DNA of 64,000 bases, taken from assembly GCA_051294375.1 (NCBI GenBank), contig CM119264.1, positions 15,338,196 through 15,402,195 of the forward strand, given 5' to 3'. Positions 12,978 through 51,308 of this stretch are shown one piece after another (position 1 is the first letter of the stretch; each line of letters starts with the position of its first letter). Made by a program: the position numbers and the translations under genes. The notes under the pieces were generated by a model. That model was not told where the DNA came from and did no database searches. It worked only from the letters and a program-made list of their open reading frames with translations. The DNA comes from Paraspadella gotoi (Eukaryota > Animalia > Chaetognatha).

Positions 12978-13182
12978 ACTATAGACAAATTAAGCTGCTT
13001 GTTTACTATATTCATATAAAAATAATTATAGATAAGTATTCACTAATATAAATATGATAGTTTTTAAGATATAACTGCTAAGTTTTGATTCCAAACTGTC
13101 CTAAGTCGGGGGAAAGTAAGCTTATTAAATGAATGGATAATTTTTTATATTGGTTGTACCAATTTCATACACTCAAACTCAC

Positions 13183-13658: not shown

Positions 13659-13830
13659 GACCCGGTGGCTCATTGAGTAAAGCCATCAGCTCATGACCAC
13701 GAGGTACCGGGTTCAATCCCAACCTGGTACCTACCCTGCGGGAAGCGTGAGGACGGCCGTAAGCCGCCTTGGGGGCGTGGCAACCCCTCAAGCCTGGTTC
13801 CAATCCCAGGACCCGTTCCATGGCTACTAA
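13659..13830 (+). mobile_element. tRNA-derived SINE-like element carrying a twister ribozyme
   Basis: Box A-like TGGCTCATTGAG and box B GGTTCAATCCC, anticodon-like loop ctCATga, followed by the twister. Confidence 0.75.
13738..13816 (+). ncRNA. Type-P5 twister ribozyme behind a tRNA-like head (one T2 mutation)
   Basis: gcggg aa GCGT GA GGA CGGCCG TAA GCC GC [P3] CCTGG TTCCAATC CCAGG A cccgt. T1 TCC/GGA pairs; the L4 G is T in this copy. Confidence 0.8.
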
Positions 13831-14319
13831 AGGGGGTTATAGAAGTTACGGATAGTCATCTTCAGCCCACTTAGCGCCTTATCCACATATACAAAACTTA
13901 ACCCTAGTTTAGTGTTAAGCCAAGCATTAATACCCTGTCTTAAGGGTTAGGGTTGAGGGGAGATGACCTCTCACTTCTTTAACTCCCTCTAGCAACCATG
14001 GAATAGGTCCTGGGCTTGGAGGTCCTATCATATTAACATGTGATTTTATAAATACAGGGAGATCAAGCTCTAATGGGACTAACTAATTGTTTACAGCACT
14101 GATGGAAAAAAAAAACCTTTTTGGAAACTAAGCTAATTTTTCTTTCGATCGATATCAAAAACGTCTGGAAAATCCAACAGCAACTACTGTAATAAAAGCT
14201 TTTTGTATAACATCAACATGTCTTATTTTTTCACGCCGTTCCCTTAAAAAATTTAGCAAAAATCAAAATGAAAGATGATGACTCCTGACATTTGACCACG
14301 CAGTTTTTGTGACTGAAAT

Positions 14320-15347
14320 CTGGGTTGGCAAAAATCTGGGTTGGCAAAAACCTGGGTTTTTTTGGTTTTTTTTTGGGTTTTATTGGGTTTTTTTAAATTA
14401 TAGATAGCAGACTGTCATATTAATTCAAAATATTTATACTTCTTAAGTGATTACTGATAAAAATATATAAAAATATACTGAATATATTTAATAATAGTAT
14501 TAATTAATATTTTTTATGGTAAACAGAAATGTAATAAATATAAATAATATATTTTCTGAATAAAACCTGTTATGAAAAAAGTGTATAAACTTAATTTTAT
14601 TAGAAAATAATAATTAAATACTCAAAATAATTTGATATAAATATGCATCATAAACATTTATATAAATTACTAATACATTGAAAATTGAAGTACATCTTTA
14701 GTACATGTTTTTGCCGAATTAACTTGTCTTTTGGGCTAAAAATAAATTTTGATGTTTGGATAAAATATTTGAGTTAATTTAATAAAATATTAAGGTGTTT
14801 AATTAGGCTAAGATTTTTTCCTGACGTCAATATATTATTTTCCCGCATTCTCGTTACTTTACTCCTGGTTAGGATACCTTTTCAGAGAATTCTTTAATGT
14901 GTGACAAATAGTCAAATATATAATTATATTGAAGTTTAATTTTTTCTGATAAATAGCTTTAAAAAAACCCTAACCTTGTGTTAAATAATAACGAGAGAAT
15001 AGCAATCATTTTTAATGTGTCGCTTTTTACATAATTTGCGATTCATGATTAGGATTACTTAATATAAGGAAAATGGTACAGAAGCCAGCAACGAAAGTGA
15101 TACTGATATTAAACATGTAAAACTTAGGTTTAAGATAATTTTTTATCATTAAATCATATATTAAGCTTTGTAAAAATTATATATCTTATATGATTTAAAT
15201 TTTTGCTTTAACAATTTAATGTTTCATATTAAAAAATTAATTAATTTTAAAAAAACCCAAAAAAAACCACTTTTTAGTAGGTTTTTTTGGTTTTTTTTAA
15301 CTGGGGTTTTTTGTTTTTTTTGGGTGGGTTTTTTAATGCCAACCCTG
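14320..15347. mobile_element. hAT-like MITE
   Basis: TIR c(t/a)gggttggca, 8-bp TSD actgaaat, subterminal gggtttttt motifs. Confidence 0.85.
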
Positions 15348-15515
15348 ACTGAAATACCCTTGAAATACCCTTGATTAATTAATCTTTTCATACAATTGAA
15401 ACATTCTTTGAAATATTATACCACTTCATTGATAGGGAAGCCAGGTTCACTGGGAGTGAATAAACAAGTCTGTGAGAGAGGCTTGATTAAAAGCTTGCAG
15501 AAACCTGTTATGTTA

Positions 15516-15580
15516 TTATCTTGCAAGTGTGATGGAGGCCTTAAACCACCAAAGCCTGTCCAAAGTCAGGGACAAGATAG
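15516..15580 (+). ncRNA. Type-P5 twister ribozyme, intact-looking
   Basis: P5 ttatcttg/caagatag; P2' GTGT; GA; T1' TGG; AGGCCT; UAA; P2 ACC; T2 AC; P3 cAAAg; P4 CCTG/CAGG; L4 TCCAAAGT. Both pseudoknots pair. Predicted cut 15542/15543. Confidence 0.85.
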
Positions 15581-15990
15581 CTTATTTATTAAATGGATGG
15601 ATAATTTTTATATTGGTTGTACCAATTTCATTGTAAGATAGAGAAGCAGAATGTATCACGCATCCTTTCCATAACTGTGAACTTCCTGACAGCGCCAAAA
15701 GTGGCTGGAATGGCAGCATTCCTAACGGGCGCGGTCGCAAAAGCATATGCTGACTTCTCTGAACATTTTGAGAAGGTTACCGAAGGTCAATTATTTTAAT
15801 AGATTATATTCTCTTAACATTTTTTTACATATATACTAATTTTCATATCATTTTTGTTATATTTACCCATCAAACATTTTTTTAAATTTAGTCCCAAAAA
15901 AGCTGGACCTCCCTGTATAAAATAATAAGCTTATTTAGTGAAAACAAAAGTTTATTTTGTTATTTTTACAACAATTTTTTAATGATAATA

Positions 15991-16040
15991 AAGACGGCCA
16001 TGTTTCGACTCTTAGGGGTTTGAGTCTTTATCAGCGTTAT
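15991..16040 (-). ncRNA. Degenerate copy of the minimal hammerhead
   Basis: ataacg CTGATAA a GACTC aaacccctaa GAGTC GAAAC ATGGC cgtc; core G>A and GUC>GGC; flank homologous to 47805-47850. Confidence 0.7.
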
Positions 16041-23098: not shown

Positions 23099-23627
23099 AA
23101 AACGAAATATATGACCATGAGGTAGTACGGTCATCCAAAAGGAGCATCAACAATCAAAATAAAAAAAAAAAGATAAGAAGAATCACAGAATTGATCACAG
23201 AACTGATAAACGTTGGAAATAAATGGACTATAATTTTATGTTTTCGCGAGAATAAAAGGTATAACGATTATGATTAAAAGGTGTTATGAGGAACAAAGTC
23301 AAGTCTAAGCTTGAGACTTTTTTTTCTCGAGACCATTGCCAAAAAGTCGTCTGGTTGCCCTGTGCGCCCCCTGGCCAAATCGCGTCCAAACAAAAACATG
23401 GCGACGTGAAAATGACCCGCTATTATTTTCGCAAACCTTCTTATTTGTCCATCTTCTCTATAATGGCATCTTTCCCTGAATAAAAAGAAATAAAAAAAAT
23501 ATTGATTCAAAAACAAAACTTTATATACGTCGTGGCTCTTTGCTCTTGCGCCGAGGCCATCATCCACGCAGTCAATGGCATCGTCAACGACAACGACATT
23601 CCCTAGGCAGAGAAATGGGTCCTCCAA

Positions 23628-25331
23628 ACCGACTTTGCTAATGCTTTAAACTGCATCAACCGCGAAAAGATACTTGAAGAAGTTCGGCGACACTGCCCAG
23701 GCGCCGCAGCACTCGCCGAGCTTTGCTACGCAACACCAAGCAATCTATTCTTTGGCGACCAACGCATCTCCAGCGAATCTGGTACCCAACAGCGCGACCC
23801 CCTTGGCAGTCTCCTTTTCGCCCTCCTCCTTCAGCCCCTCTCCCGTCTCAAAACGGATTTTTCTCTGCTCCTCCTCGTTTTCTTCCTCGATGACGGCATA
23901 CTCTTAGGCCGCCGCGAAGATCTCATTTGTAAAGTCGAGGAGGGGGTTCTTTCACATTCGCGCTTTCGACCTGCTGCAAACTTCAGGGGCTGAGCTCGGC
24001 CTAAAATTAAATGCCTTCAAATCTCTTATCTGGTGCGGCGACGAGGCCCTCCCCGATCCTCTCAGTCGAGGCGTTCCTCCCGCAGCCCCTGACGGATTCA
24101 CCCTCCTCGGCTCCCCAGTTGGCAACATCCCCTACTCTCGGTCGGTCGTCTCCACACGATCCGAGAAAATCACCTCAATCTTCGATCTACTCCCCTCCCT
24201 CAATGACGCCCAGATTAAATACAATATCCTCCGCCACTGTTTCTCTCTCCCCAAATTCTCTTACTGCCTTAGAACCTGCGATCCTCTCCACCTTCAACCC
24301 ACTTACTCTCACTTTGGTTCCTTCCAATTGGCCTCTTTTTCACGCATCCTCGGACGCCCTCTCAACGAATCCGCGCGCATCCAAGCCTTTCTCCCCGTCA
24401 AACTAGGGGGCGCCGGCCTTCGCTCCGCCACTCGACATAGCGCCGCCGCCTTCATCTCATCCATCAGCCAAACCCGCCACATCATCGACTCCCTCCTCCC
24501 CGACAATCCTTCGCGCCGCCCACTACAAAACGCCTTCCCTCTCCTTCAGGATGCCACTGGCAACCCCGCGTACTACTCCCTCGAACTTTTACCTCCCGAC
24601 TTCACGCAGCACTCCCTCTCATCCGAAATCGACTCCTCCTCTCACAACTCTGCTCATCAGCATCAAATCGCGACACCGCCAGACTTCACTCTCTCTCCCT
24701 CCCTCACGCCGGTGACTGGTGCGATGCGGTGCCCTCTCCTAGCCTCAACCTCAACCTGGATTCTCGCTCCTTCAGCGCGGCGATGGGATATCGCCTCGGA
24801 ATCCCGCTCTTACAGGCGGGACCCTGCCGCTCTGAAATATGCGACCTCGAGGAGGATGACCTGGGGGACTACGCCCTGCACTGCCACGACGACCACGGGG
24901 TCAAGGGGGACCGACACGACCGGATTCGGGACAAAATCCACTCAGAGGCACAACTCGCCTGCCTCAACCCGAAGAAGGAAGCTCATGGTCTCGTCTCTGG
25001 ATCCCTATCTCGTCCCGCCGACATCTACATCCCTAATTGGATAGACGGCCGGAAAATAGCCTTTGATGTATCCGTCGTCTCCCCAGTCCAGGAGGCCATA
25101 ATCTTCCAAGCCGCCATTGAGATGCGGAAATCCGCCAAAATGCGCGGCAATTTCGCCAACTGCCAGGCCCAAGGAATACACTTTCAGCCTCTCATAGTGG
25201 AAACCTTTGGCGGCTGGGACAAGGAAGCCCTGACTTTTCTTAAAGCCCTTGCCCACGCTCGACGATGGGGAAAAAACAATTCCCTGGAATGTAAATACTT
25301 TTTCCAGTGCCTGTTCGTTGCCCTTCTTTGA
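23628..25331 (+). pseudogene. CRE-clade (RLE-type) non-LTR retrotransposon remnant, RT plus CCHC plus restriction-like endonuclease
   Basis: DFANALN, GTQQRDPL, FFLDDG, LPVKLGGAGLRS, C..C..H.LHC, RHDRIRD, RPADI, AFDVSV and ETFGGW motifs; several frameshifts. Confidence 0.88.
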
Positions 25332-25399
25332 TTTTACTTTGATATTTATTTCCATATTTTTATTTTTAAATGTTGACCAATTACCATACAATTACCATA

Positions 25400-27609
25400 C
25401 AATTCTTCTGCTTGAAGACCCCTATGCAGAATTTTCTCTCCTCCGCTCCTGCCTCTCTTCCTAAACTCTCCTACGCCCTGCGCGCCACACCACCTTCCTT
25501 TATAAAGCCTTCTCTACAACGCTTTGATGGGATCATGCGCGAGGCCCTAGTGGGATCTCGCCTGGACGACCTCCAATGGCGCCAAGTTTTCTCTTCCCGT
25601 TTCGATGGGAGGGATGGGCGTCAGAGGAGCCTCAGCCCATGCCCCCGGAGCCTTCCTCGTCTCCACTCGTTCTACTCGTGCTCTTGTTGAGTCTATTATC
25701 CCTCTCCTGTGATCCTTGACTCTGCCAGAGCCCTTCAGACTTTGAATTCCCTCGTTACCTCCCCCTTTGATGAAGACCTCGGCGATGCAACTCAAAAGAT
25801 TTTTTTTTCTGAAATAAAAGAGACAATTTGACAGTTAAGACGATAAAAAGATAAAACGATTTTAAACAATTTGACATTCAAACAATAAAAGAGTATTGAG
25901 CAAGACTAATTGCACTGATGGCACTAAAAATAAAAAGATAATTTTATAAAAAATTGTCAGACACGCGATCGACCTACATCTTCAGCAACATTTGGTGGTC
26001 GACCTCTCTTCTGAAAGAGACATTGCGCGTCTTAAATCTTTGGCTTGGCCACATGCTGGAGATTGGCTCAACCCGGCCCCTTCTCGCCCCCTGGGACTTC
26101 ATCTACACTAGAGTGATGTGAAAATGATAAATTTTTAGAAAATTAAAGTTTAGCATATAAAACATGAACATAAAATCCAATAAAAATATTTTGGTAAATT
26201 TATTTTTTAATTTTATACATTAGTGGGTACCAGTGAGCTATATTTATAATAATAATTATTATTATTATTATTATAATAGTAATAAGTATATAATAGGCTA
26301 AAATTTCAAAATACAAATTTTTAAATTTTAAGATCGGATTTGGATTCCTTGCAAAAAGTTATTATAAGAAAGTACAATTCCTTTTTTAAAAATTATTTCA
26401 TTAAGTTAGTCAAAAATGTAAAAAACTATATTTAAGACGCCGATTTTAAATTTCCAGCTAAAAATATAGTTTTTTGTAGTTTTAACCTACTTAATGACAT
26501 AATTTTTGAAAAAGATTTATACTTTCTTTTATTAACTTTTAACGAGGAATCTGAATCTGTTCTCAGAATTAAAAAAAAACCATTTTGAAATTTTGACATT
26601 ATATAAGGGTAGTACTATATACAAAATAAGCTGACTGGGCTACTATATTTATTAAAAAAAAAAAATAATTACAGATTAGTATTCACTAATTCTAATATGA
26701 TAGTTTTCAAGATATAACTGCTAAATTTTGATTCCAAACTTTCACTTCACCCTAATCTACACCCACTAGAATTTCCAGTGGCAGCCCAATACCGTCTCGG
26801 CCTCCGTTTTCAGCATGGCTGGACCCTGCCCTGCTTGTGGTGCCGATAGCGATACCCTCGGTGATCATGCTGTATCTTGCGCAAACGATGGAGAAAGGAT
26901 CTCGTGTCACAACAAACTTCGGGATGCCCTTCACAAGGACGCAGCACGCGCCGCTCTTGCTCCCACTAAGGAAGCTCAAGCCCTCCTGCCTAGCAGGACT
27001 GCACGCCCCGCTGATATTTACATCCAAAACTGGATAGAAGGGAAGGACGCCGCCTTGGATGTGACCGTTGCAAACTCCCTCCTCTCATCCATCATCCACA
27101 GGGCTGCGGAATATCCAGGTTCGGCGTTGGAAACCGCCCGTGGGAAGGAAAATGGCTGTCCTTCGAAGCTTGCCGCGCCGAGGGGATCATTTTCGTCCCC
27201 CTTCCAGCCGAGACACTCGGAGCTTGGGACGCCGATGCAGCCCTCCACATTTCGTAAAATTTGTCTGGCACTGGCAAGGCAAACCGGACGCGAAGGGGGT
27301 GAAACAATCCGTCATCTCTTCCAGCGCCTCGGAATTGTATTGATGAAGGGAAACGCCGCCCTCCTTCTCAACCGCAATCCCTCTCACCCGACTCCAGATG
27401 TTGATGCATCGATGGCGACGTCGATCACGAATGACTCCTGAAATGACTCATTAATTCTCCATCTCAACATCTGTTAGAATCTTTCTGTGATAGTCCATTC
27501 CTGTGATTCCTGTGATTCTTCGTATTTTGTTTTATATTTTGATGCCCTTTTGGATGACCAGTCTACCTCATTTATTTTGTTGTCTCTTTTTCTTTCCAGG
27601 AAAAAAAAA
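25400..27609 (+). pseudogene. Second, divergent CRE-like retrotransposon remnant, interrupted
   Basis: LPKLSYALR, GDWL, CPAC..D.LGDHAVSC, RPADIYI, ALDVTV, LFQRLGIVLMKGNA. Split by a hAT MITE at 26109-26754; A-tail near 27601-27609. Confidence 0.85.
26109..26754 (+). mobile_element. hAT-like MITE family B inside the CRE ORF
   Basis: 8-bp TSD atctacac. Confidence 0.9.
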
Positions 27610-29158: not shown

Positions 29159-31634
29159 AGACTTCTTGATGTTCATGCTTTGCGGCCCAAGGCGTTCAAT
29201 GTGTCACTCGTCGAGAAAGGGTTCTGACAAGTCTTGAGTAATATATTACGTATATTGGTCGTAAAAAATTGTGGCAATAATTGTGACAAAAACAGTAGCG
29301 AAAACGCTTAAAAACATTTTCCAACAAGAGACGTTCAAAAGGTTCATTAACGACTGAAAAGCAAGTGACAAAAATTTGGAAAAGTAGATTTAATAATTGC
29401 CCGTCGTCAAAAACTGGCCGAGATAGAGAAGAAAAAAATATGACCAACGACAATTCTCTTTCACACTCTCTCTCTCTCTCTACATCTTAGACTTATTTTT
29501 TCAGCCCTGATTTTCTATTGTCATTTATGATTCATGAATATTAAGGAATAAATGAGTGTTTGATTAATTACATACATGATTTTTGGACTATTGATTTAGT
29601 GATTGATTTATCTATCAATAGATTGATTGGTTGATTGAGTGATTGATCCATCTATCAATTGATCAAATGATTGACTTATTGGTTCTTTTACTGATTGATT
29701 GATAGTTTATACAAATGATGTTTTGCGTTTTTTATTTTTTTCCTTCATTATTTTTTTTTCTTCATTCATTTTCATTTGAAAGAGAGAGAGAGAGAAGAGA
29801 GGAGGTGGAGAGAAAAGAGAACATGAAAGAGTAAAATGAGATACTCTGGTTAATCCTAAAACTTGTCTCCGAGATAGTCTGGTTAAACTCATTATTAGCT
29901 TGGACAGGGAAATACTTGGTCGTGACATGGGGTAGTACACTGTAGGTACTTTATCCATATGTTCTAATTACATACAACCAGTTCGCCGGAGAGGCCCAAT
30001 ATAAAATATAGCATTCATACTTCATACTTCATCTAAATGTTCTAATTACTTTTTTTTTCTGAAAAGAAAACAGCAAACAAATAATTGCGGGAATGGTTGC
30101 AAAAATATCTTATGTCAACAATAAACATAAACAAAAAAGATAAAAAAGAAAAAGAGATCAGGGGACAAAGTCAAGCAACTCCGTCCACATGAGACGGCAA
30201 CTCAATCACGGGACTTCGGGAAGCAAGCAGGTTCCCATTCTCGCACTGAAGGCAGACAGAAAGTCTCTCAAAAAAGTTCTTAGACGTTTTGCCGATATCT
30301 AAGCCTGCATTCGTTGCTTGAAGTTTGGCAAAGTCTTTTAGGTTTAAGAAAGCATCCAGGTCCCATGCCCCAAAGGTAGTGACAACCAAAGGATATGAAG
30401 CCAAGTCGGCCGGCAGTTTGCCTTCATACTTAGCATGTTTGGCCTGACGAGCTCGTTCCAGGGCATATGTGGGGTTGACTAACTTACAACCAGTTGGCCC
30501 ATTTTAAAATATAGCGTTCATCAAGGATGTCTTCTGCCCTCGCTCTCTCAACACATCGTAACTTTAACCTTTTTACATTATTCATCTATTTTTTTAAAAA
30601 AAATCGATTTTTTCAAAAATTTACTTTCTCCTTAAAGATTTAATAGTAAAAGTTTTCCGATTGATCTGAAACTTAAAGAGCTTTAATTTGAATGAAAATA
30701 TTACCTATCTTTAAAATATTAATGAGATATGATTGTACAGTTTTTTATTGGGTTTAAAAAGGTGTATTTTTTTCTCTTTTTGACAATTTCAAAATGCCAT
30801 ATCTCGGCCTTGGATGATCTAATTTACAAAATATTTATATATTTAGAATCCTTGTCTTAATCTCTTTTTATAATAATAAAAAAATTTGAAACTTTGATAA
30901 AGTATTAATAAAAACCTTTTTTAAAGTAATATCTTAAAAATAATATCAATTTGAAAATAAAGTTAAAAAATTCTCCAAAACAAGCTTAAGTTAAAGCTTA
31001 TACTATGTAATTGTTAAGCACTTAAAACAATAAAAAAATACTTACGTAGTAAGGATAAATTTAGTAAAGTAGAAAATCTTATAATATGTAAATGAGATTT
31101 AGGCTTATTTTAATTTAAATTTTTTAGACCACCAGCAGATAAAGTAATGCTTTGGCTATTTTATGGTTAAAAAATCAATCCAGTTCTCTGTATATTTTAG
31201 GTATAAATGACAATTGAATTTTGTTTCTAAAATTTTTGACCAAAAAATGACCCGAAACTCATATATGTTGTAGAGCTACCAAAGCTCATCTAAGACTATA
31301 ATATAAAATCATAATATTCACTAATATAATAGTATACTGATTTAAAAAAATGACACATCTTAAAATATTTCCCCTAGTAAATGCTAAAACTTTTCAAATT
31401 TTATTCTATATCTGACAAACATCTCACAAACCCTTTTAGATGTATATGTAAAATTTTAAAATTGTACTACATAAAATGTCCAAGTTATGCCAACAAATTT
31501 TTGGTGTAAGTGGTTTAGATATGCGATTTAAATTTTAACCCAATGGGCGATTCATAATCATATGTAAAAACAGACGCAAAAATATAAGAATTATTTGATC
31601 CCAGGAAAAAGGACACTCTACGCTTCGGGTACTA
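27645..31634. mobile_element. Long-TIR foldback DNA element (Tc1/mariner-like, TA-flanked) with nested insertions
   Basis: Outer IR gtac.cgaagcgtagagtgtcctttt; inner ~400-bp IR 27812-28230 vs 30590-31010. Confidence 0.75.
30049..30480 (-). pseudogene. 5'-truncated CRE-like retrotransposon 3' end
   Basis: KHAKY...YPLVVTTFGAW...FFERLSVCLQCENG...HVDG*, then a T-rich 3'UTR ending TTTTCAG(A)n. Confidence 0.82.
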
Positions 31635-38330: not shown

Positions 38331-39405
38331 GGCATTCCTGGAGATCAATGCCCTCTGGAGGCCTATGGGAAAACAAAGAGCAAGGTTTTTCTTAAAGAAT
38401 TAACGGGAAAAAAGAAGAACGAAATAGAAATAGAAATAGAACGTTAGAGGATAACGTTTCGGGGAAAAAAATAAAGGAATTCAGATATAATTTTTTTTAA
38501 TATTTTTTATTTTTGTTATATGAAATTGGTACAACCAATATATATTTGGGTAAAAATTAAGGTTAAAATAAATTATGGTTAAGAATAAATTAAGAATAAG
38601 TGTAAGTTAACTAGAAAAATAAATTAAGGTTAAAAATAAGTTAGGGGTAAGTTAGGGTTAGAGGTAAGTTAGGGTTAGAGGTAAGTTAGGGTTAGGGGTA
38701 AGTTAGGGTTAGGGGTAAGTTAGGGTTAGGGGTAAGTTAGGGTTAGGGGTAAGTTAGGGTTAGGGGTAAGTTAGGGTTAGGGGTAAGTTAGGGTTAGGGG
38801 TAAGTTAGGGTTAGGGGTAAATTAGGGGTAGAGGAAAGTTTGGATTAAGGGTTAATTATGGGTAAATTAAAGTTAAATTTAAGTTTTGGCTTAAGTATAC
38901 AATAATTTAATATTTTAAAAAAAAATATTTAAATATTAATATAAATTTAATAAAAATAAATATATTATATAATATTTACATTTTTATTTATGATTACAAT
39001 GGTCATTTAATAATTCAGAGAGAGAGAGAGATATCAAGGTTAAAATTGCCTATCTCTCTATCTCTCAAAGTTAGTATCCAAATATTTATTAAAAATATTA
39101 AAACTGGTTGATGAAGGTTCAAAAAACAAGAACCAAAACATATCCTAATTATTAAATGATCGTGGTTATCACAAATAAAAACTGTTATTTTGTAAATATC
39201 TATCAAAGGCAATTAAAAAAATATTATAATTAATTTTTTGAAAGAAAAAGAAATCCTTAGCTCGTGAAGCTTAAAAACGTGTTTAATATCATTGTTGTTA
39301 CGGTCTTAAATTTTTTTTTCCGTAAAGAAACGAACTTCATTTTTTCCTCTTCTTTCTCTTCCTTTTCCCATAAGCCTCCAGAGCGAATTCAACTCCGGGA
39401 TCGCC
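38331..39405. mobile_element. Merlin-like MITE with internal telomere-like array
   Basis: GG...CC ends, ~44-bp imperfect TIRs, 8-bp TSD cattttaa, internal (TTAGGGTTAGGGGTAAG)n at about 38641-38830. Confidence 0.8.
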
Positions 39406-40851
39406 CATTTTAAAAATGTTATTCAATTCATGGTAAAATTGTCAATAACTGTTTACGATATTCCCGGTCGGTGATTTAGGGGTAGTTTAGGGTTAGGGAA
39501 ATTAAGTAATTTTTTTTTATTTATTTTTTTTTAAATAAGAATTTTTAAGTGGTTAAGCTTTCAATCAAGTTTCTCACACAGTCTAATTTTTCTACTTCCT
39601 GAGTACCATGCTTTCTTATCAATGAAGTGATATAATACTTTAAAAAATGTTTCAATTGTATGAGATCGCGAAATATTTTATTGTACTCTGCACTAGTATC
39701 AAAATATATATATCTTGAAATTAGTTCATTAGTATTATTTATTTATTTTATTTATTTGCTAATTTGTACCATTTTGATTGTATGCAAATTTAGAAGTTTC
39801 TTTATTCTTTATACATATAAAATATAAGTGGGAAGGAGGCCTTAACCCGCCGTAGCTATCAAAACAACTAAAAAGGTAAAGATAGTAAAATATGAGATTT
39901 GGGAATTAAGGGAATCAGTGTTAGGTGACGGTGTATACTAAATTTTTCTAGTAAATCTTTTTATCGTCGCAATCGCTTAGCGTTTGCGACGATATTGTAT
40001 CGCTTTTGCCCATAAGTAGGGGGAGACTAACTCAGTAAGGTGGTTAAGAAATTGCATTAAGCACCTGCTCAAACGAAAATTTAGACATTTTTAAAAAAAT
40101 CTTTTTTTACCTAAAAGTAGACTTCAAGAATAAAGTTTTGAACCCCCGCCCCTATTGAATTTAATTTCATAGTAGATTTCTACCATAAGTGGCGTCGTCG
40201 TTGTCGTCGGCGTTCTAAATTATAGATCGCCTTTTTTATGATTAAATTTAGGTGTATGAAGCTGAAAATTTATATACAGCTTCTCATCATCGATGTGCTT
40301 AAAATTGGGTCAGGACAGTTATTAAATATGTTTTGTTTACATTTTATTAAAACAAACAAATTTTCTCTTTTATTTTTATATTTCTTTCTCTCTCTCTCTT
40401 CTCTTTTAATTACATGTCTCTGTCCCTCTCTTTTTTCCCTAGTCACTGATTCATAGGGGAAAAAACGAGTCTGCAGCTGGCTCTGCAGGGGATTATTCTT
40501 TTTCTCTCTTTTCTGCTGCTGCCTTTTGATTTCTTTTTTTTCTGGGTGCTTCTTCTGCTGCCGCTGCTGATTCGTCTGAAAACGATTTGGCTTCTCTCTC
40601 TCTTTTTTTCTCTGGGGCTGTGTCTGCTGATCAGTTTATTTTTTTCCTTTCTATTCTTTCTTTCCTTTCTATTCTTTCTTTATATTTATTCTTTTCTTCT
40701 TTTTCTTTCTGTTTATAAATTTTTTTTTCTCAAATTTGATTTTTTTAGTATCAAAATTTGTCATCAATCCAGATTTTTCTTATGCGATTTTGACGATCCT
40801 TATGCTTTTGAGATTTTTTAACAATTCATCGATTCATTTTTTTCCTTCTAG

Positions 40852-47849: not shown

Positions 47850-47899
47850 TAGATGGACATGTTTCGACTCTTTGGGTTCGAGTCTTCATCAGCATTTAA
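47850..47899 (-). ncRNA. Minimal type-I hammerhead ribozyme (Penelope/retrozyme style)
   Basis: Minus strand: taaatg CTGATGA a GACTC gaacccaaa GAGTC GAAAC AT GTC catcta. Intact core, palindromic stem III ACAUGU, predicted cut 47856/47855. Confidence 0.88.
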
Positions 47900-48973: not shown

Positions 48974-51308
48974 GGTTCTAGTTGGTTGGCGACTTCGCCA
49001 TGGCGATATCGCCACGGCTTTGGCGATGTCGCCAGTCCCCCACTGCGCGACCTCGCCAGTGATAAAAGTAGCGAATATAATGAAAGCGCAGCTAACACGG
49101 GGATGAGCCATCACCTTCAGGCTCCTCTCCCAACCCTAACCCTAAACCAAACCTCCCGTTCAACTCTGTGCCTCTCCCTAACCCTAACCCGGGCCTGGGC
49201 CTCCCGTACATCTCCATGCTAAACCCTAACCCTAACCGCCTTTGATGCATCAACCAACGGGCCCCCCCCCAACCCTAACCCTAAACCAAGCCTTCCCGTT
49301 CAAGACTCTGTGCCTCTCCCCTAACCCTAACCAGGCTCAGCCTCCCGTACATCTCCGTGCCTCAACCCTAACCCTAACCGCCTTTCGATGCATCAACCAT
49401 GGGCCCCTCCCCCAACCCTAACCCTAAACTAAGCCCGCCGTTCAACCTCCATGCCTCTCCCACTAACCCTAAACCCAGGCCCAGCCTCCCGTACATCTCC
49501 GTGCCTCAACCCTAACCCTAACCGCCTTCGATGAATCAACCATGGTCCCCTCCCGCAACCCTAACCTAACCAAGCCTCCCGTTCAACCTCCATGCCTCTC
49601 CCCTAACCCTAAACCAGGCCCGGCCTCCGTACATCTCCGTACCTCAACCCTAACCCTAATTGCCTTCGATATATAACCCACGGGCCTCTCTCCCAACCCT
49701 AACCCTAAACCGGGCCCAGGCCTCCCGTAACATCTCCGTACCTCAACCCTAACCCTAATTGCCTTCGATATATAACCAACGGGCCTCTCTCCAACCCTAA
49801 CCCTAAACCGGCCCAGGCCCCCGTACATCTCCGTGCCTCAACCCTAAACCCTAACGGCGGGCCTCTTGGTCATCAACAACACCCTCCCTACCCCTATCCC
49901 TAAAATTGACATTAATAATAAGCCTAAATAAACTTAACTTAACTCAACCCTAACCCTAACCCTAAACACTCAACCCTAACCCTAAACTACTCAACCCTAA
50001 CCCTAACTACTACCTACTCAACCCTAACCCCTAAACCAACTCACCCTAACCCTAACCCTAATCTGAGTTTTATTTTTAGGCGAAATCGCCATAACTAGAA
50101 CGCTAGATGTAGTTCAGTGCGAAATCGCCAAATCGCGACTTAGCCATGAATGCCCTCGCCATTTGGCGGTTTAGCTGTGAACTACATCTAGCGTTCTAGT
50201 TATGGCGATTTCGCCTAAAATAAACTCAGGTTAGGGTTAGGGTTAGGGTTGAGTTGGTTTAGGGTTAGGGTTGAGTAGGTAGTAGTTAGGGTTAGGGTTG
50301 AGTAGTTTAGGGTTAGGGTTGAGATAGTTAGGGTTAGGGTTAGGGTTGAGTTAAGTTAAAGTTTATTTTAGGCTTATTATTAATGTCAATTTAAGGGATA
50401 GGGGTAGGGAGGGTGTTGTTGATGACCAAGAGGCCCGCGTTAGGGTTAGGGTTGAGGCACGGAGATGTACGGGAGGCCTGGGCCCGGTTTAGGGTTAGGG
50501 TTGGGAGAGGCCGTGGGTTATATATCGAAGGCAATTAGGGTTAGGGTTGAGGTACGGAGATGTACGGGAGGCCTGGGCCCGGTTTAGGGTTAGGGTTGGG
50601 AGAGAGGCCCGTGGGTTATATATCGAAGGCAATTAGGGTTAGGGTTGAGGTACGGAGATGTACGGGAGGCCGGGCCTGGTTTAGGGTTAGGGGAGAGGCA
50701 TGGAGTTGAACGGGAGGCTTGGTTTAGGGTTAGGGTTGCGGGAGGGACCCATGGTTGATTCATCGAAGGCGGTTAGGGTTAGGGTTGAGGCACGGAGATG
50801 TACGGGAGGCTGGGCCTGGGTTAGGGTTAGGGAGAGGCATGGAGTTGAACGGGAGGCTTAGTTTAGGGTAGGTTGGGGGAGGGGCCCATGGTTGATGCAT
50901 CAAAGGCGGTTAGGGTTAGGGTTGAGGCACGGAGATGTACGGGAGGCTGAGCCTGGTTAGGGTTAGGGGAGAGGCACAAGAGTTGAACGGAAGGCTTGGT
51001 TTAGGGTTAGGGTTGGGGGAGGGCCCGTGGTTGATGCATCAAAGGCGTTAGGGTTAGGGTTGAGGCATGGAGATGTACGGGAGGCCCAGGCCCGGGTTAG
51101 GGTTAGGGGAGAGGCACAGAGTTGAACGGGAGGTTTGGTTAGGGTTAGGGTTGGGAGAGGAGCCTGAAGGTGATGCTCATCCGTGTTAGCTGCGCTTTTC
51201 ATTATATTCGCTACTTTTATCACTGGCGAGGTCGCCAGTGGGGGGACTGGCGACATCGCCAAAGCCCTGGCGATATCGCCATGGCGAAGTCGCCAACCAA
51301 CTAGAACC
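48974..51308. repeat. 2.3-kb foldback palindrome made of TTAGGG-containing ~120-bp subunits
   Basis: Arms 48974-50116 and 50178-51308 are near reverse complements around a 61-nt spacer; ends GGTTCTAGTTGG...CCAACTAGAACC. Confidence 0.9.

Follow-up and report, generated by a model that had tools for sequence, protein, structure and literature searches.

A type-P5 twister variant with a palindrome in place of P1, predicted to act as a dimer, in an IGHMBP2 intron of Paraspadella gotoi

We analyzed a window of 64,000 nt of the chaetognath Paraspadella gotoi (assembly GCA_051294375.1, contig CM119264.1, forward-strand positions 15,338,196–15,402,195; coordinates below are those of the window). The 65 bases at 15516–15580 on the plus strand are supported as a twister; the feature is real, represents a variant of a ribozyme class already known, and is predicted to self-cleave. 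From sequence, folding models, and analogy with other ribozymes, we lean towards a reading in which a palindrome replaces helix P1 of a type-P5 twister, cleavage between 15542 and 15543 would occur mainly in a strand-swapped dimer, and the carrier is likely the truncated 3' end of a Naiad-type element. By its sequence, the window has the character of an AT-rich, repeat-rich eukaryote, probably an invertebrate.

Anatomy of the twister core

Compared with the anatomy given in PMC5408937, the segment forms a complete twister core in type-P5 strand order, with the following parts.

15516–15580 (+): type-P5 twister ribozyme fold, closed by P5 (15516–23/15573–80); from sequence, Rfam, descriptor, folding, and covariation
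15531–15535 (+): general-base G, conserved A, and T1 strand (partner 15560–62); from sequence, PMC5408937 anatomy, and T1 covariation
15536–15541 (+): self-complementary hexamer replacing P1, predicted intermolecular duplex; from repeats, scans, covariation, and cofolding
15542–15544 (+): U^AA with predicted cleavage at 15542/15543; from alignment to Rfam Twister-P5
15545–15570 (+): 5' strand of P2 (imperfect P2 with 15527–30), T2, one-pair P3, P4, and L4; from sequence, folding, and covariation

The first-pass annotation had described all core positions as intact, and the sequence bears this out: the catalytic G and A, U^AA, T1, T2, and P4 are all found. The general-base position is G15531 with A15532 next to it (15531–32), and the cleavage site reads U15542^A15543 with a further A, A15544 (15542–44); a type-P5 twister requires these bases at both places. 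The cut previously placed between 15542 and 15543 is supported by the alignment to Rfam Twister-P5. Both pseudoknots are Watson-Crick throughout, as had been stated: T1 (3 bp, 15533–35/15560–62) comprises T15533-A15562, G15534-C15561, and G15535-C15560, and T2 (2 bp, AC/GT, 15548–49 with 15565–66) comprises A15548-T15566 and C15549-G15565, its partner being the second GT, after AA. Each pseudoknot shows double-sided changes over six copies. P3 is indeed reduced to a single pair (C15550-G15554) enclosing AAA, and P4 (15555–57/15568–70, 3 bp) is extended by G15558-C15567 and U15559·A15564, the G-C and U·A extension required of type-P5 twisters (15555–59/15564–70). P5 (15516–23/15573–80, 8 bp) closes the fold. 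The claim that this is the smallest copy holds within the window; beyond it, the core of a metagenome twister described below (L011) is just as short.

Strand order, U^AA, catalytic G, T1, T2, the open P5, and P4 with its G-C and U·A extension are shared with type-P5 twisters (RF02684, PMC5408937). The differences lie in P1, which is a hairpin of at least 5 pairs in type-P5 twisters and a 6-nt palindrome here (AGGCCT at 15536–15541, as annotated), in a P2 with a bulge or mismatch, and in a score 12 bits below the Rfam gathering cut-off. An ordinary P1 hairpin is impossible in this sequence, which has six bases alone between T1 and the cleavage site; because P1 is reported to be dispensable (PMC5408937), we take its absence to mark the copy as a variant. 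In P2, A15545-T15530 and C15546-G15529 are followed by C15547, which faces T15528 or joins G15527 over a bulge. We dropped the 3-nt 5' strand of P2 as a possible defect, since six phage type-P5 twisters used as controls (L001–L006; L001–L005 were retrieved with a pattern requiring GGCC) have the same short strand together with ordinary P1 hairpins. From these controls, the short P2 strand is therefore normal, and the bulge and the hexamer are abnormal.

The whole-window Rfam scan matched Twister-P5 (RF02684) at 15528–15570 with 25.6 bits (E 0.35); at gathering level (cut-off 37.6 bits), Rfam gave no match in the window. A descriptor found one match in the window, where 100 shuffles gave 0.08 on average, and none of the 100 contained a match to its strict form; the descriptor was composed after viewing the sequence, with T2 set to the other GT, and serves only as a chance estimate. 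That E-value and the after-the-fact descriptor leave room for a chance twister-like match within AT-rich intron DNA, which we regard as very improbable: the strict descriptor was absent from all shuffles, and compensatory changes are seen in three more window copies and two metagenome copies. Sequence covariation among these copies largely refutes the chance reading.

The palindromic hexamer and predicted dimer folding

Three further twisters in the window are related to the 15516 copy.

39824–39885 (+): sister twister whose 5' half is intact (hexamer again AGGCCT) and whose P4/L4 are decayed; from repeat comparison
13734–13818 (+): related twister with hexamer CGGCCG, long P3, and one T2 mismatch, after a tRNA-like head
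839–922 (−): related twister with hexamer GGCGTC, after a tRNA-like head

In the 839–922 copy, an A-U pair substitutes for the G-C pair closing L4. Half copies lie at 13091 (+) and 14020 (−). From six copies we built a covariance model, which recovered only half copies (13064–13123 and 14035–13998, E 2) and no additional full copy in the window.

The hexamers (AGGCCT twice, CGGCCG, GGCGTC) are self-complementary in 4/4 window copies, with compensatory changes (GGCGTC with G-U), and their duplex energies are −9.1 (AGGCCT), −10.7 (CGGCCG), and −6.3 (GGCGTC) kcal/mol. In the six-copy alignment, 89% of cells were paired, compared with 69% in shuffles and at most 53% in slid controls, and 8 of 12 pairs were changed on both sides, a result reached by 0/500 shuffles; the sample is small (six sequences), and the window copies at 39826 and 13744 were found via queries that included the hexamer. 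The three hexamer pairs were paired in 100% of cases and kept in 6/6 copies with double changes. The central pair, which cannot form inside a single strand, was also kept in 6/6, with one swap.

A scan unbiased with respect to the palindrome used one pattern, with P1 given as six Ns, on metagenomes, prokaryote genomes, and viral contigs. It returned 38 matches (27 in metagenomes, 11 in prokaryote genomes) and none in the viral contigs; another viral scan for short P1 gave one match, an ordinary long-P1 twister. Perfect T1 and P4 were found in 3 of the 38, namely the metagenome twisters L011 and L023, which both carry the palindrome CAGCTG, and the bacterial L037, whose six-nt P1 region is non-palindromic. 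Watson-Crick palindromes occurred in 2/3 of these structured matches and in 0/35 of the others (Fisher p 0.004); with G-U allowed, three of the 35 others count as palindromic (p 0.04). L037 (101–163, +, in a Nitrospirales genome) has perfect T1, P2, and P4, and is either a real short-P1 twister or a chance match.

Taken as sequence evidence and by analogy, the conserved self-complementarity of the hexamer points to a strand-swapped dimer like that of the dimeric hammerheads of Penelope-like elements. Two copies, either as tandem pseudo-LTRs in one transcript or as two RNAs, would pair via the palindrome and form one shared P1 of 6–8 bp. At each composite active site, one copy would supply the catalytic G together with the T1 strand, and its partner would supply the scissile U^A, P4, and L4; the dimer would contain two such sites, an arrangement described for hammerheads whose stem III is palindromic (PMC6765202, PMC7229834). 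Tandem transcripts would be cut to unit length, and lone copies such as the one at 15516 would be cut little.

Folding predictions agree with this arrangement to a degree. In the predicted ensemble of the 15516 monomer, AGGC pairs with GCCU (p ~0.8) and P4 is nearly lost (p 0.07); cofolding two copies gave the palindrome duplex with p 1.0 and raised P4 from 0.07 to 0.95. The same strand-swapped dimer was predicted for the three complete window copies (palindrome duplex p 0.95–1.0), with the 13734 and 922 copies cofolding like the 15516 copy. The palindrome duplex was minor in cofolds of L011 (0.19) and L023 (0.04), the P2 register was shifted in the predicted dimer, and 17 of 156 non-palindromic permutations dimerized as strongly as the native sequence. 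Because the folding programs used ignore pseudoknots, we consider the support from cofolding modest.

The chief rival, an active monomeric mini-twister, appears rather unlikely to us; in it, the hexamer would remain open or be capped in cis by one or two pairs, and a tiny hairpin, not a dimer interface, would account for the palindrome. Every catalytic position is present, P1-less twisters cleave at a near wild-type rate (PMC5408937), and P1 and P2 flaws left cleavage undiminished among 1948 type-P1 twisters screened (PMC11662667); since P1 is dispensable and such flaws are tolerated in type-P1 twisters, the monomer may cut. However, a cis hairpin needs no complementarity of the central bases, the very pair that is kept in all six copies, a one-bp P1 costs ~3.6 kcal/mol, and P4 is lost from the predicted monomer ensemble.

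Still less probable is a decayed, inactive relic of a formerly active twister, with the AGGC/GCCU helix or a weak P2 blocking folding. The sub-threshold Rfam score, the misfolded minimum-energy monomer (z −0.65), and the truncated or degenerate state of the ~20% diverged sister copies agree with a relic, but the core positions carry no mutation and the folding programs disregard pseudoknots. Furthermore, the imperfect P2 (two pairs plus a third via the bulge) is common to 4/4 window copies and three Naiad consensus sequences, and the bulge is therefore a family trait and not damage. The earlier ranking of the 15516 copy as the best candidate for biochemistry is fair with respect to its core residues, but as a monomer it is predicted to misfold. 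Under the preferred dimeric reading, the 15516 copy itself most likely has no function in vivo and is a remnant, because it is single and antisense to IGHMBP2.

The carrier repeat and its surroundings

The repeat that carries the twister, its relatives, and an adjacent insertion are as follows.

15388–15496 (+): 5' flank of the carrier repeat, possibly the C-terminus of a decayed Penelope-like RT ORF (by eye); from repeat comparison
15581–15635 (+): 3' tail of the carrier repeat; from repeat comparison
13091–13168 (+): 5'-truncated sister, ribozyme 3' half and tail; from repeat comparison and covariance model
39555–39663 (−): inverted sister of the 5' flank; from repeat comparison
14320–15348 (strand not assigned): hAT-like MITE with terminal inverted repeats and an 8-bp target duplication, in IGHMBP2 intron 1

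Both flank recurrences noted in the first-pass annotation were recovered. The 3' flank match is longer than claimed (15549–15631 vs 13091–13168, 83% identity) and includes the 3' half of the ribozyme, and the 5' flank recurs inverted (15388–15496 vs 39663–39555, 80% identity). A tail-like stretch near 39764–39782 precedes the sister twister at 39824. In this one window, two features fit insertion patterns described for Penelope-like elements (PMC8557442): the 5' truncation of the 13091 copy and, at 39555–39885, an inverted flank that adjoins tail and twister remnants.

We consider a Penelope-like origin of the carrier probable on sequence grounds, and the 15516 copy is likely, with moderate confidence, the truncated 3' end of an element of the Naiad type. 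Naiad-type elements have an RT ORF at their end, with an N-terminal GIY-YIG nuclease and a CxC motif. The frame of the 5' flank is open in both copies (~40 codons) and by eye resembles the ends of mytilid Naiad ORFs, with no codon-position bias. Searches with the flank peptides (Pfam, Atlas, and two protein searches) returned no relevant match and did not tie the flank to Penelope-like RTs; their sole match, to a leucine-rich-repeat Roc protein, was rejected as spurious. Because the protein searches failed, the Naiad assignment of the 15516 copy depends on resemblance.

Further context comes from the metagenome contig L011, where the minimal palindromic twister (150–192, −) lies in the 3' untranslated part, ~290 nt past the stop of a YMDD ORF (482–1090, −) that has no C-terminal or downstream nuclease. 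This ORF had no Pfam or homolog match and no tblastn match under E 6 in the window; its Atlas neighbours score 0.95–0.97, one cluster having PF26215 HTH_animal in 10% of members. The context suggests Penelope-like elements with a C-terminal RT. By eye, L023 has no evident RT frame.

Type-P5 twisters with palindromes occur in the 3' end of at least 4 of 54 published Naiad consensus sequences (PMC8557442 File S5). In supplement part 22, all three Naiad 3' ends (Naiad_Bpla, Naiad_Mphi, and Naiad_Mgal by table order) have a type-P5 twister with the P5-AA linker, bulged P2, AC/GT T2, and L4 pattern of the window copy, and a fourth, near supplement part 8, has a perfect P2. These published twisters carry two palindromes and a longer P1 region; string searches of the accessible supplement found none with a single hexamer. 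According to the same paper, canonical hammerheads are missing from Naiad and most Chlamys elements, and what hammerheads do in Penelope-like elements is unclear; the word 'twister' is absent from its main text.

Two other carrier types were set aside for the 15516 copy. The reported absence of a tRNA head stands: ARAGORN called no tRNA in the window, and the A/B boxes that a tRNA-derived SINE would have upstream were not seen by eye. Non-LTR retrozymes are head-to-tail repeats of 150–400 nt bordered by ribozymes, with tandem monomers that give rise to circular RNA; the covariance model found no second twister adjoining the 15516 copy in the window. Upstream of the 13734 and 922 copies, tRNA-like motifs resembling A/B boxes were seen by eye, without a call by ARAGORN or Rfam. 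These two copies lie in two distinct tRNA-headed SINE-like elements (13660–13900, +, and 990–800, −), in which the palindromic-P1 twister directly follows the B-box-like motif. At 14020–13973 the 13660–13900 element recurs inverted and 5'-truncated, with canonical T2.

The host gene was identified from two stop-free minus-strand frames (17915–17649 and 13487–13314) that match residues 4–59 and 55–89 of human SMUBP-2 (E 8e-8 and 0.008). The twister is antisense in the first coding intron of IGHMBP2, as previously proposed, because it is located between these two minus-strand exons. Past about query residue 221, no IGHMBP2 exons were found in the window. The 922–839 (−) twister has the same sense as IGHMBP2 and would be part of its pre-mRNA if the gene runs beyond the left end of the window. 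The MITE was inserted just upstream of the 5' flank and is separate from the ribozyme; the DNA to its left shows no convincing RT frame.

The window contains other self-cleaving and mobile sequences. A minimal type I hammerhead of the Penelope kind, with a full core and palindromic stem III, lies at 47892–47856 (−), and a degenerate one at 16034–15993 (−), ~400 nt from the 15516 twister on the other strand. Broken ORFs at 23600–25400 (+), 26770–27441 (+), and 30171–30503 (−) resemble restriction-enzyme-like non-LTR retrotransposons and are presumably CRE-like; Pfam gave no relevant match for three frames from the first two regions. Tandem arrays of telomere-like TTAGGG-related units occur at 49100–51200 and 38640–38830, distant from any visible end.

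Comparison with known ribozymes and implications

When stem III is palindromic, the hammerheads of Penelope and of amphibians are reported to cleave as dimers (PMC6765202, PMC7229834). Minimal type I hammerheads, as found in Penelope-like elements and in amphibian retrozymes (PMC6765202, PMC7229834, PMC7761336), resemble the 15516 twister in that a helix has shrunk to a palindrome and the motif sits within a retroelement repeat. They differ in having an unrelated fold, and dimer cleavage is shown for the hammerheads and predicted for the twister. The Naiad-tail twisters (PMC8557442) share with it the bulged P2 (G-Y-G-N / N-C-C), P5-AA linker, AC/GT T2, L4 layout, and a position near the 3' end of the element, but their P1 region and P3 are longer and they contain two palindromes, whereas the 15516 copy has one hexamer and a one-pair P3. 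The T-variant twisters of the Schistosoma non-LTR retrotransposon Perere-3 (PMC8501958) are likewise retrotransposon-linked and altered in or missing P1; unlike the 15516 copy, they are of the type-P1 permutation, lie at the 5' end of the element, and lost P1 through cleavage and insertion, and the accessible text notes no palindrome. We found no description of palindromic-P1 twisters, natural dimeric twisters, or Naiad twisters in the literature covered; most subscription papers lie outside that coverage, and the Roth type-P5 alignment could contain such variants. What the window adds is a minimal form with a single hexamer, a test of the palindrome that was unbiased, and carriers with tRNA-like heads.

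Tentatively, and as a possibility that we hold a little short of even, these twisters may be obligate strand-swapped dimers via a single 6-nt palindrome, the smallest form of a twister lineage that takes the place of hammerheads in Naiad/Chlamys-type Penelope-like elements and has spread to tRNA-headed SINEs. As an individual insertion, the 15516 copy is probably a remnant without importance for the host. At 65 nt, the copy is small enough for direct testing and could act as a concentration- or tandem-gated cutter. A twister in the place of the hammerhead with the same palindrome trick suggests that Penelope-like elements need an RNA that cleaves itself, whatever its class, and that selection acts on the dependence on two copies itself. 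If the obligate-dimer reading is true, two unrelated ribozyme folds would have converged on one palindrome-dimer switch that restricts cutting to tandem retroelement RNA.
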